Assembly (NCBI RefSeq): GCF_044704955.1
Contig: NC_091999.1
Coordinates: forward strand, 10,354,001 to 10,418,000
Length of the DNA: 64,000 bases
DNA from: Pristiophorus japonicus
Lineage: Eukaryota
Direction of reading: 5' to 3'
Part shown: piece after piece, positions 4,908-60,307 of the stretch
How the letters are laid out: each line of letters begins with the position of its first letter
Position numbering within the stretch: the first letter of the stretch is position 1
Position numbers and translations under genes: made by a program
Notes under the pieces: generated by a model
The model's database searches: none
What the model saw: the letters and a program-made list of their open reading frames with translations, nothing else
What the model was told of the DNA's origin: nothing

Positions 4908-5450
4908 ATGCGGAACCGCCTCACAGCACTCCTCATCATTATATCACTTCTCAGTAAGTCTTTCCTTGTCATTAAAAATCAATTTTCACCTGGACTGCTG
5001 TAACTCAGCTGTTATTATTGGTAAAATGATGTTGATGATTATGTTGATTGGGATTATGGTGATGTTGATGATGAAGATGGTGATGATTACAATTATTTTA
5101 TGTTAGAATGGAGCCACCAAGACACAATGGAATAGCTGGTCCCTGAAATGACCATTGAAGAGGAAAGTAATGTCACACTAACCTGCAACTTGAAAACAGG
5201 CGATACTGCCCCTTATGTGTACTGGTACAGTCAGCACCCCGGGAAGCAGCCATAGTACGTGCATCACCTTATCGGTGGGGATGTATACAGGAACACTAAC
5301 ATCACTGATGGATTTTTCTCTACGTTTACTAAAATTACCAAGATTACCGTGCTCACGATCGGCAAAGCCCTGATCTCCGACACTGCCGTATATTTCTGTG
5401 CGATGGAACCCACACTGCTACAGAGTTATTGTGGATCCCTTACAAAAACC
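4908..5450 (+). pseudogene. TCR alpha/delta V pseudogene (leader 4908-4953, V exon 5107-5410, RSS 5411-5450)
   Basis: Leader MRNRLTALLIIISLL/GTAAG; VTLTC..YWYSQHPGKQP..DTAVYFCAMEP; two in-frame TAG; CACACTG-24-ACAAAAACC. Confidence 0.93.
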
Positions 5451-24197: not shown

Positions 24198-25182
24198 AAT
24201 GTGTTCCCTCTGCTGGTGTGAATGCTCCTGATGGCTATTTTATAACACGTAATTAGTACAATATGTTCCCGATGCTTGTGTGTATGCTCCTTATGGTCGT
24301 TGTAATAGGCAATAAGTAAAATGAGTTCCTTCTGGTGTGAATGCTCCTGATGGTTATTGTAATAGGTAATGAGTAAAGTCCGTTCCCCATGCTGGTGTGA
24401 ATGCTCCTGATGGCTATTTTATAATACGTAATTAGTACAATATGTTCCCGATGCTTGTGTGTATGCTCCTTATGGTCGTTGTAATAGGCAATAAGTAAAA
24501 TGAGTTCCTTCTGGTGTGAATGCTCCTGATGGTTATTGTAATAGGTAATGAGTAAAGTCCGTTCCCCATGCTGGTGTGAATGCTCCTGATGGCCATTGTA
24601 CAATGGATAATTATTAAAATGTGTTCCTCATGCTGGTGTGTATGCTCCTGATGGTCATTGTAATAGCTAATTAGTAAAATGAGTTCCCTCTGCTGGTATG
24701 TATGCTCCTTATGGTCATTGTAATAGGTAATCAGTAAAATGTGTTCCCTATGCTGGTGTTTATGCTCCTGATGGTCATTGTAATCGGTAATTAGTAAAAT
24801 GAGTTCCATATGCTGGTGTGTCTGCTGCTGATGGTCATTGTAATAGGTAATTAATAACATATGTTCCCTTCAAGTGTGAATGCTCCTGATGGTCATTGTA
24901 ATAGGTAATGAGTAAAATGTGTTCCCTCTACTGGTGTGAATGTACATGACATCCATTGTAATAGGCAATTCGTGAAATGCGTTCCCTCTGCTGGTGTGAA
25001 TGCACATGATATCCATTGTGATAGGTAATAAGTAAAATGTGTTCCCTATGAAGTATGAATGCTCATGATGGCCATTGGAAAATAGGAAATTCGTAAAATG
25101 TGTTCCCTATGCTGGTGTGTATGCTGCTGATGTCCATTGCAATAGGTATGTTGTGCTATATATTCCCTATGCTGGTGTGAAT
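24198..25182. repeat. Minisatellite, ~60-bp unit, ~16 copies, with an internal 179-bp higher-order duplication
   Basis: Consensus ~AATGTGTTCCCT(C/A)TGCTGGTGTGAATGCTCCTGATGGTCATTGTAATAGGTAATTAGTAA. Confidence 0.93.
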
Positions 25183-41917: not shown

Positions 41918-42605
41918 GGTTTTTCTACAGCTGTCTCCGTGCTCCGCATCACCGTGCCTGTGATACCCACCACGTCCAGGTTTGTGAAGTCTCTTCATGC
42001 ACTACATCACTGTGTGTCTGTAATCCCCACTATGTTTAGGCTTTGGAACACTCTCGGTGCTCTGTATCATTGTGTGTCGGTAATCCCCAACATGTTCCGG
42101 TTTTAGTACGACTCTCCCTGCTCTCTCCTTCCCCATGCTCTCCCCCTCCCCTGGTTCTCCACGTTCCCGCCCCAGCTCTCCCCTCCCTGTGCTTCCCCCC
42201 TCCCCGTGCTCTCCCGTTCCACTTCCACCCCCTGCTCTCTCCCTCTCATTGCTCTCCCCCTCCTTCCTTCCCTCTCCATGCTCTTAACAGATAAGGGAAT
42301 AAGGGTTTATGGGGACCGGGCAAGGAAGTGGACCTGAGTCGAGGATCGGATCAGCCATGATCATTTTAAATGGCTGAGCAGACTCGAGGGGTCGTATAGC
42401 CTACGCTTGCTTCTATTTCTTATGTTCTCATGTTCCCTACATGCACTATATAAGTGCGTATCTGTAATTGCCACCATGATCAGGTTTTAGTGCGGCTCTC
42501 TCCCTGCTGTGTCACTCTGTGCCTGTAATCCCCAATATGTTCTGATTTAATATCGCTCTTTCCATGTTCTGTATGACTGCGTATCTGTAATCCCGACCAT
42601 GATCA
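41918..42605 (-). repeat. Tandem array of ~6 degenerate RSS-containing units (~61 bp), interrupted by a CT-rich/CR1-tail insert (~42120-42435)
   Basis: Each unit copies the heptamer-spacer-nonamer of the 42606-42644 RSS plus a ~21-nt linker. Confidence 0.85.
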
Positions 42606-42644
42606 GGTTTTTGTACGGCTCTCTCCCTGCTGTGTATCACTGTG
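42606..42644 (-). other. Consensus 23-RSS of the supporting V-delta
   Basis: CACAGTG-23-ACAAAAACC. Confidence 0.97.
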
Positions 42645-42950
42645 CTGTGTGCCGACTCGGTGCACAGTAATACACAGCGGAGTCACTCAGTTGCAGTTTT
42701 GCGATGTTTAACCGGCTGATTTTCTCGGCAGGATCGATCGTAGCAGAAATTCGGCCACCGGCAGCGTTTTCTTTATTCCCCTCTCCTGAAGTGTGTCTCT
42801 GAAGCAGGTATTTTGGAGGCTGACCTGGGGACTGACAGTACCAGTGTACTGTGTACTGACAGGCACCTGGATATTCACAGCTTAAAGTAATGGTGTCACC
42901 GACAGTAGAAGTTTGTAGAAGCGGCCTCTGGGACACCGTGGAACTGGAAG
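42645..42950 (-). CDS. NAR-TCR supporting TCR-delta V (leaderless)
   Basis: Phase-1 acceptor CCCTCCAG; SSTVSQRP..ITLSCEYPGACQYTVHWY..DSAVYYCA; extra CDR1 Cys; no in-phase leader nearby; downstream of the NAR J. Confidence 0.92.
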
Positions 42951-49613: not shown

Positions 49614-49668
49614 CGGCTGTGACAGTCACCACAGTTCCGGATCCATCCACAGTATCATAATAGTCCAC
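49614..49668 (-). CDS. NAR-TCR J segment
   Basis: VDYYDTVDGSGTVVTVTA + G/GTAAGT donor; RSS at 49669-49707 (CACCGTG-23-ATAAGAACC read on plus). Confidence 0.92.
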
Positions 49669-50051
49669 CACCGTGACACCACTCTCAGTCACTCCGACAT
49701 AAGAACCACCGACACCTCAATCTACCGGCCACACAACACCAGACATTAGGCGCTGCTCAATAATGATCCAATGACCAATAATCAAAATTTGTTTCCCACA
49801 GTCCCCGTCGGTTCAATCTGTTCTTTGTGAGATTCTGACCTCCTCGTAAAATAGTCCGGGAACATGGGCCGGCGTTAAAGGCTTCCTATAAATGGAGAAA
49901 ATATCAGAGAAAGATAATCGAAAGCAGGAATTACACTGAAATTAAACCAGATTACAGCGACAATATGGTCAAACCTACAATTCAAGTTCCGGGCCCGGCG
50001 AATTCATGCTTTAATTGTATATAGGTTTTTGCTCAGGGCTCTGCCACTGTG

Positions 50052-50064
50052 TTGCTCCAGTCAA
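50052..50064 (-). CDS. NAR-TCR D segment (13 nt, TTGACTGGAGCAA)
   Basis: 3' RSS CACAGTG-12-GCAAAAACC (50024-50051); 5' RSS CACACTG-12-ATAAATTCT (50065-50092). Confidence 0.88.
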
Positions 50065-50404: not shown

Positions 50405-50442
50405 AGTTTTTGTATCGCGGGAAACCAAGGTCTATCACTGTG
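50405..50442 (-). other. 22-spacer RSS of the NAR-TCR V
   Basis: CACAGTG-22-ACAAAAACT. Confidence 0.95.
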
Positions 50443-50919
50443 TATTATATTTGTACTGAGCTTTACAGTAATAGATGGCGCTGTCTTCAACTCGCACATC
50501 TCCAATTTCCAGCCAAAATGTCTTTTCAGCCTCATTCGTCCTCATAACAAATCGCTCGTCGATCGAGATCCGTTCCCTCTCTGTCCCGGTCTTGGTTTGT
50601 CTGAAGAATTCCCCACGAGTTAAAGGACGAGCGAAAAATCCACCATAGAAAACGCAGGTGATGGTGAGAGACTGACACTCCTGCCTGGTCACCGCTGGCG
50701 GGGTTTGTACCACTGACTGACTGAAATAAGCTGGAAATTAAACGGAGAGTGTTTAATGGAACATCTGAGTCGAACCACACAGCGGGGCTAAAACCCAGAT
50801 AAAGTCTGTAATTCGGAAGGACACGGCAGCTTTATATTAAATCCACACAATGTCTATTTGACTGAACGGTACTCACGGGGGAAACAGATATACAGGGCGA
50901 AAACAAGCAGGATTCCCAT
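50443..50919 (-). CDS. NAR-TCR V segment (IgNAR-like; exons 50877-50919, 50443-50730)
   Basis: Leader MGILLVFALYICFP/GTGAGT; VVQTPPAVTRQECQSLTITC..FFRQ..ERISIDERF..EDSAIYYCKA; shortened CDR2 region and YYCKA as in VNAR; extra FR1 Cys. Confidence 0.95.
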
Positions 50920-55833: not shown

Positions 55834-56311
55834 CGTTTTTGTTCGGGATCCGCTACATCTCCTCAGCAGTGTGGGCTCCAAGGCACAGAAATACACGGCG
55901 GTGTCGGTGATAAGAGCTCCGGTGATATTTAACGGAACCATTTTGTTGTCTCTGAGGAAAACAGCAAAGAACCTGTCTATTAAAACTGGAGAGTGATTTC
56001 CCATCCCCGAGCTATATCTCCTCAGTAATTATCTTGGAGCTTTCACGGGATACTGGATGTACCAGAAGAGAGTTGGGGCTTTGCATGTTGTCGACTAACT
56101 ACAGTTCATTATTATGGTCTGCCCTTCCTGTACCATTAAATGAGGCGGATCCTGGGACACTGAATCTTTACCACTCGTTCCAGGAACAAAATGCATAATG
56201 TGTTAAAAGTCTCGGATTGAATATAACCCATGGGACACGCACCGGCCGTTTAATCATTGACATGCCGCCAGCACGGTCATTATTATCAGTAAGGAACCAG
56301 GGAGAGCACAT
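55834..56311 (-). pseudogene. TCR V pseudogene
   Basis: Frameshifted leader with lost splice sites; KDSVSQDP..MNCS*..LFWYIQYP..DTAVYFCALEP; CACACTG-24-ACAAAAACG. Confidence 0.92.
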
Positions 56312-59835: not shown

Positions 59836-60307
59836 GGTTTTTGTACGGGGTCCGTTATATCTCTGCTACAGTGTGGGCTTCATGGCACAGAAATACACGG
59901 CGGAATCGGAGACTAGCGTCCCGGCGATATTTAAAGGTATCGTTTTATTTATTGTGTTCATAGCAGCAGAGACTCTGTTTGGTAAACCTGGAGACTTGTC
60001 TCCGGCTTCTGAGCTATATCTCTTCAGTAAATATCTCGGAGCTTCCCCGGGATATTGGACGTACCAGAACAGAGTTGAACCAGCTGTGAGTAACTGCAGC
60101 TCAGCACTATGTTTCGCCCTTCCTGAACCGTCAATTGAGACGGATTCTGGAGCACGGTATCTTTGCCATTGATTCCTGTAACAAATCAGAGAATGTATCA
60201 AACGTTGTGCGAGTGAATATAACCCATGGAACACAAACTTGCCATTTAACCATAGACTCACCGGGCAACACGAACATTATTATTACTAAGAAACGTGTGG
60301 AGCACAT
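59836..60307 (-). pseudogene. TCR V with a single frameshift in CDR1 (leader 60262-60307, V exon 59876-60175, RSS 59836-59875)
   Basis: MCSTRFLVIIMFVLP/GTGAGT; KDTVLQNPSQLTVQEGRNIVLSCSY then frame shift to TAGSTLFWYVQYP..DSAVYFCAMKP; CACACTG-24-ACAAAAACC. Confidence 0.92.

Follow-up and report, generated by a model that had tools for sequence, protein, structure and literature searches.

An RSS-derived minisatellite behind the supporting V-delta segment of the shark NAR-TCR

Criscitiello et al. reportedly described, in 2006, the NAR-TCR, a doubly rearranging TCR-delta of cartilaginous fish. The NAR-TCR chain requires two separate rearrangements. According to the available part of PMC1845163, a leader, an NAR V, a D and a J are followed by a supporting V-delta with a Cys in CDR1, which joins the common D-J-C delta. 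The host cassette analyzed here is of the same kind, but repeated recombination signal sequences (RSS) behind the supporting V are absent from that part of the account. In TCR-mu of marsupials and the platypus, the second, supporting V domain is germline-joined or lacks a D (PMC3457774, in the part available). That second V is specially handled too, but it has a separate origin and involves fewer recombination steps, and the available part of PMC3457774 mentions no RSS array. In the mouse, TRBJ1-7 and TRBJ1-2 have alternative RSS whose use retains germline DNA (available part of PMC6857471). As would be the case here, a farther RSS is usable there and the first RSS stays in the coding joint; however, the mouse system involves one dissimilar RSS at a distance of 39 nt, with 9 positions shared, whereas the locus described here carries up to 10 homologous tandem copies that recur across species and whose use is putative.

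Literature searches that covered NAR-TCR, arrays of RSS, the rules for spacers and satellites of sharks gave no description of such an array, although an earlier remark in the primary NAR-TCR papers is possible, and none is given in the available parts of PMC12227049, PMC6795676, PMC13617356, 10.64898/2026.09.05.749481 and PMC2193808. The family-specific RSS minisatellite, shared among sharks, is real and, apparently, undescribed.

A NAR-TCR cassette in the TCR alpha/delta locus

The window (the entire analyzed stretch of 64,000 nucleotides) lies inside the TCR alpha/delta locus on C23, where we detected a C exon at 9722.5k, seven J segments and, at the RSS threshold used, one D-delta. The supporting V is located upstream of D-J-C delta, and joining of the window V would be by deletion because D, J and C are on the same strand as this V.

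About 7 kb upstream of the V that hosts the array are the leader, V, D and J of a NAR-TCR (Table 1). The NAR V is preceded by its leader, carries a Cys in the a-b loop and has no Trp in the WYRK motif, and a D and a J of its own are encoded between it and the second V. The supporting V-delta contains the CDR1 Cys (CEYPGACQYTVHW in translation), and its acceptor at 42950 is in phase with the donor of the NAR J; homologous protein models splice J to V. Two hydrophobic ATG stretches, which might include a leader, are found within 600 nt of the supporting V. Many sharks and one ray have two-V proteins that are homologous to the cassette; among the 60 protein matches, those labelled Pristiophorus japonicus are the closest that carry a name. 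The gene identity proposed in the earlier note, a NAR-TCR cassette with a supporting V-delta, is thus supported by features that match those in the available part of PMC1845163. In FR2 of the supporting V, near 42850, WYCQ replaces WYRQ, and the resulting extra Cys is common to the four intact paralogues and to some Hemiscyllium models.

Table 1. Features of the NAR-TCR cassette and of the RSS array in the window
Feature	Position	Strand	Description
NAR-TCR leader exon	50877..50919	-	ATG at 50919, hydrophobic peptide, GT donor
NAR-TCR V exon and RSS	50405..50730	-	Exon 50730-50443; RSS with 22-nt spacer at 50405-50442; open frame
NAR D segment with 3' 12-RSS	50024..50064	-	D at 50052-50064; RSS scan, sequence
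NAR J segment with 5' 23-RSS	49614..49707	-	J at 49614-49668; RSS scan; DYYDTVDGSGTVVTVTA and GT donor
Supporting V-delta exon	42645..42950	-	Splice acceptor, CDR1 Cys, YYC; homologues in two-V predicted shark proteins
Unit 1, true consensus 23-RSS	42606-42644	-	CACAGTG-23-ACAAAAACC; 0 mismatches, score 27.4; directly behind V exon
Linker and unit 2	42543..42605	-	CGCAGTC-23-ATTAAATCA at 42543-42581; decayed nonamer; no CAC register; predicted inert
Linker and unit 3	42483..42542	-	Best register CACAGAG-23-ACTAAAACC (42483-42521); score 18.0; predicted cuttable
Linker and unit 4	42099..42482	-	Heptamer CGCACTT at 42452-42458, nonamer at 42099-42107; insert in spacer
321-nt insert inside unit 4 spacer	about 42119-42439	-	Presumed retroposon-like piece and GA-rich tract
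Linker and unit 5	42039..42098	-	CACAATG-20-TCCAAAGCC at 42039-42074; best register with CAC and 22-24 spacer scores 6.3; predicted poor
Linker and unit 6	41979..42038	-	Consensus CACAGTG-20-TCACAAACC at 41979-42014; marginal via overlapping CACACAG-22 register, score 12.6
Linker and unit 7, terminal	41918..41978	-	CACGGTG-23-AGAAAAACC at 41918-41956; score 15.0; predicted weakly cuttable

Anatomy and distribution of the array

Behind the supporting V, from 42644 to 41918 on the minus strand, seven units are arranged in succession (the true RSS and six more), each consisting of a heptamer, a 20-23 nt spacer, a nonamer and a 22-24 nt linker. The RSS origin of the units that had been proposed from the sequence is supported. 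The six units beyond the true 23-RSS are 58-63 nt each, one of them split by a 321-nt insert, which, judging by its tail, we take to be retroposon-like; this insert is present in one unit of all six parsed arrays. The RSS scan and the sequence place the units named in the earlier note where it had located them on the minus strand. For the third unit, the place is confirmed, but the register given for it (42483-42519/21) is less good than the one that starts two bases earlier, with CACAGAG as the heptamer, which is also the heptamer of an entire ordinary V-gene family in the locus. By comparison with units 3-4 of paralogue L002, unit 3 is likely a fusion that remained after one unit was lost. 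Pairwise identity among the window units is 53-90%, and a repeat search of the window identifies them as a 60-nt family with a spacing of 60-62 and an identity of 63-73%; the divergence among copies is too great for TRF, which does not report the array at score 30. At positions 24198-25182 of the window there is another tandem array, with a 60-nt unit and about 16 copies, whose relation to the RSS unit is not significant (p 0.13-0.19).

This genome encompasses eight supporting-V copies, and the head-to-tail units, within the 10-100 nt range of minisatellites, vary in number from 1 to 11 among these paralogues of a single assembly. Like the minisatellites or VNTRs with higher-order repeats known in general, the array has a short unit (about 61 nt), a variable copy number, recurring unit types and neutral-like divergence; unlike in an ordinary minisatellite, the unit is a recombination signal and is tied to one V family. 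The six parsed arrays comprise 7 (window), 8, 11, 11, 8 and 4 units, including the true RSS. The longer arrays repeat the order of three types, namely 23-spacer, CGC-broken and 18-20-spacer, and end in a terminal 23-spacer type. A further supporting-V copy, read by eye, has two units followed by unrelated DNA, and a pseudogene supporting V has a single RSS, with a 3' flank that matches the flank behind the terminal unit. The lone RSS of this single-RSS pseudogene (L007, C23 about 9970k) has an insert in its spacer, apparently flanked by a short target-site duplication.

The V survey covered 1.26 Mb of a 2.0-Mb span, picked around V matches, and yielded 106 V segments. Five supporting V segments were tested and have 1, 4, 4, 5 and 5 downstream copies of their RSS. 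Among the 101 other V segments, 97 were tested, the remaining 4 having no full flank; their own RSS is not repeated downstream in 95 and is found there in one copy in 2, compared to 94 with none and 3 with one in the opposite-strand control. When up to 2 mismatches are allowed, a 34-nt pattern of the unit matches the whole 5.9-Gb genome at four places, all inside these arrays, so that a genome-wide satellite in Pristiophorus japonicus is rejected for the pattern used. A supporting V is present within 20 kb of 7 of the 11 NAR V segments and of none of the other 4; the NAR V at C23:10624k, 10928k, 11190k and 11338k have no supporting V of the array-bearing family within this distance. Conversely, no NAR V was found upstream of the supporting V at C23 9935k.

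To trace the unit in other sharks, we scored 21 protein tails, selected from the 60 matches for having a tail and including 2 controls, against 30 shuffles (p floor 0.032). Eight tails fit the unit beyond RSS1 (z 2.9-8.5), one fits weakly, four are too short and eight do not fit. The fitting tails belong to Pristiophorus, Hemiscyllium (4), Rhincodon and Stegostoma, and to the protein P0053. Tails of Carcharodon, Cetorhinus and Heterodontus are uninformative because they already misfit RSS1, likely as spliced models; the Callorhinchus tail shows no unit fit and belongs to a different V. In P0053, which came to light only through its long open frame, five units follow one another at a period of exactly 61 nt. 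By best-case back-translation of the peptide rather than in DNA, none of the five differs from the consensus 23-RSS by more than 1 mismatch, and 299 of 300 shuffles yield no such site. On the same best-case basis, P0061, the only protein added by an HMMER search with the P0053 tail, has two consensus-compatible 23-RSS units. Among the same-frame units of P0053, motif-coded residues are identical at 9 of 10 positions and the others at 18 of 30, which is a trend only (p=0.08). Near-length and tail-only protein searches returned nothing further, and the unit pattern has 0 matches in metagenome and viral contigs. In P0017, P0019, P0021, P0035, P0046, P0049, P0053 and P0061, the frame is open through RSS1 and further units, and in these records, found by a search that favored open tails, a distal join could be in frame, each unit then adding about 20 residues to CDR3.

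In sequencing runs of other organisms, contigs proceed from V through RSS1 to the linker, and loose ends continue with nonamer, linker and heptamer. The 7-unit template recruited 175 contigs from run X8, 73 from X9, 45 from X15 and 2 from X14. At one linker with its heptamer (L003:2016-2063), the contig depths add up to 275,719 in X8, 15,673 in X9, 6,004 in X15 and 43 in X14, against 356, 32, 15 and 4, respectively, over RSS1, a difference of several hundred times in the first three, where contig depth is no copy number and uncovered parts of the template are uninformative. In X8, X9 and X15, the loose ends at the deepest part are head-to-tail 20-spacer units. These depths hint at the existence, in some other sharks (three of the four runs), of a high-copy family built from the RSS-derived unit. 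An RNA search of the stretch listed no holder of it, a result uninformative as to expression or distal joining. The array being present in paralogues and in other sharks, the objection of uniqueness to the window copy, which the earlier note had allowed for, falls away.

Signal quality and sequence change of the units

Spacers of 18-20 nt confer poor RAG activity. CAC is needed for appreciable RAG cleavage (PMC10536018, in the part available). The CGC units and those with 18-20-nt spacers are expected to be RAG-inert. The extra units were scored with a simple matrix, not an RIC model and with no shark RAG data in it. This matrix was derived from the other V genes of the locus, which supplied 68 distinct RSS, and it required CAC and a spacer of 22-24. 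By this measure, 10 of the 43 extra units reach at least the score of the weakest real V RSS, 5 reach at least the 10th percentile, and four pass only through an overlapping CACACAG/CACACAT register. The other 33 fall below and do not combine CAC, a 22-24 spacer and a nonamer in the real range. In the window, three of the six extra units pass, and the units orthologous to window unit 7 miss the same threshold in 5 paralogues. One or more extra units score higher than the weakest real RSS in each of the four intact paralogues; the copy with a single unit is a pseudogene. Two paralogues carry a second perfect consensus 23-RSS 185 nt downstream of the true RSS; the heptamer of this 23-spacer unit is unchanged in all four copies. 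On this prediction, about a quarter of the extra units remain cuttable and might influence rearrangement.

Minimal changes per site were counted across the four intact paralogues, with 2-4 members in each group of orthologous units. Heptamers and nonamers changed at 30/160 (0.19) and spacers and linkers at 86/437 (0.20; p=0.92), compared to 61/309 (0.20) for the insert and 35/298 (0.12) for the V exon. The five unit groups with all four copies, summed by hand, give 18/80 for motifs and 45/214 for spacers and linkers, and when the two damaged paralogues are added, the counts for the six are 43/112 and 104/303 (p=0.52). The linker (39/236) is the class with the fewest changes after CAC (4/30), and the true RSS alone has 2/16 motif changes. 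The 3' flank (153/249) does not serve as a neutral control, since in one paralogue it contains an unrelated insertion. As the motif rate equals that of the spacers and linkers and that of the insert, the whole array evolves in this genome in the manner of non-coding DNA; the test is small, and its data are compatible with moderate constraint on one or two units. Motifs no more conserved than linkers were among the outcomes that the earlier note had named as speaking against its functional interpretation, and this is the outcome in this genome; the five consensus-compatible units of P0053 keep that interpretation in play, so that it is partly supported overall.

Drift, selection and other explanations

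On balance, and with some reservation, we regard the array as an old minisatellite of RSS origin that gains and loses units, is mostly inert, and drifts in this genome, with some cuttable units as a by-product. We infer a single ancestral origin: in an ancestral supporting V, the RSS and its flanks would have been duplicated once in tandem, after which units would have been gained and lost by unequal crossing-over or slippage. With drift in the absence of selection in this genome, most extra units are predicted to be poor targets for RAG, and the few that are intact would be no more than decoys arising as a by-product. Near-perfect distal units could be accounted for by renewal, that is, by fresh duplicates of unit 1 rather than by selection. 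The split between the sawshark-like and carpet-shark lineages is more than 200 million years old. Persistence over this time, as suggested by the proteins of both lineages, is long for a neutral minisatellite and counts against drift. The restriction to the supporting V, the five units of P0053 and the two of P0061, and the second perfect 23-RSS in two paralogues would also speak against it.

It is possible, if doubtful, that selection maintains the array as a RAG landing and retry device that tunes the frequency or order of the second NAR-TCR rearrangement. In the landing version, RAG would occupy the neighborhood of the supporting V more often because of the additional heptamers and nonamers. 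In the retry version, a distal intact RSS would take the first join and unit 1 would be left for a later V-to-J join, which, with one D-delta found, would be D-less. Confinement to the supporting V family, occurrence across shark lineages, the consensus-compatible units of P0053 and P0061, the retention by every intact paralogue of one or more extra units that outscore the weakest real RSS, the status of the single-unit copy as a pseudogene, and the availability of seven J-delta for a retry are all consistent with such a device. However, the motifs are not conserved in excess in this genome, most extra units have no CAC or have 18-20-nt spacers, the insert is tolerated, and the compatibility of P0053, ascertained by its long open frame, and of P0061 is one of peptides and not of DNA sequence. 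In the window copy, an in-frame TGA stop lies within the unit 1 heptamer, and a distal join would be non-productive because unit 1 stays in the joint; it would also consume the only D-delta 12-RSS found. Thus, the retry idea of the earlier note stands as mechanically possible, but it would need a D-less join and would encounter the TGA in the window copy. The broader proposition, that an ancient RSS multimer present only at the NAR-TCR supporting V loads RAG or gives several tries and has grown into a high-copy satellite in some lineages, we can put forward only tentatively. If this proposition held, an RSS array would serve a receptor segment, and a V(D)J signal would have given rise to a satellite.

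An RSS repeat that, among the V segments tested, is confined to the second V provides a direct handle on the two rearrangements: every shark assembly can be scored for it, and breaks in the thymus can be mapped at fixed coordinates. Even a neutral array shows how an RSS array decays in a RAG-exposed locus, and in other sharks a high-copy repeat may have originated from the RSS unit. The array is also a trap for gene models and for automated annotation of V and RSS, and several shark protein predictions extend into it.

We consider it improbable that the array serves chromatin opening, the ending of germline transcripts from the NAR VDJ, or spacing, its RSS appearance being a matter of ancestry. 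Such a role would be compatible with linker columns that are at least as constant as the motifs and with persistence across lineages, but the overall rate of change equals that of the insert, and copy number, at 4-11, follows no pattern.

Another explanation, which addresses the origin of the linker only and to which we likewise give little credence, is that a D-delta with its 5' heptamer was captured, so that a V-RSS/D chimera formed in a germline event and was then amplified. The one D-delta found, at C23:9737202 (L020), resembles the linker together with its 5' heptamer: the linkers align to this D-delta better than to random 25-mers of the locus (p about 0.007) or to shuffles (p about 0.006), and the V coding end aligns to the linkers less well (p 0.11 and 0.08). 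Yet, this likeness was noticed after the fact, and both sequences are short and G-rich. Furthermore, all spacers derive from the RSS of the V and none from that of the D, no 12-spacer nonamer is seen by inspection 5' of the linker, the chimera has a form that matches no ordinary RAG product, and the terminal unit retains the CACAG of the V end ahead of its heptamer. The linker, about 23 nt in length, does not have the structure of a D-delta segment with a 5' 12-RSS and a 3' 23-RSS, and no RSS in reverse orientation was found behind the supporting V. An assembly artefact is ruled out because the units are diverged and recur in paralogues and other organisms.

Elsewhere in the locus (C23 9.99-11.67 Mb), for the RSS of many V genes, including those at 5411-5450, 55834-55873 and 59836-59875 of the window, the best reading is a CACACTG heptamer followed by a 24-nt spacer, and CACAGAG is used in a different family. 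Between the V-delta block and the D, at C23 about 9746.5k (L021), there is a V end, YYCAR, with a 23-RSS; this is possibly an IgH-like V, of the kind called TAILV.
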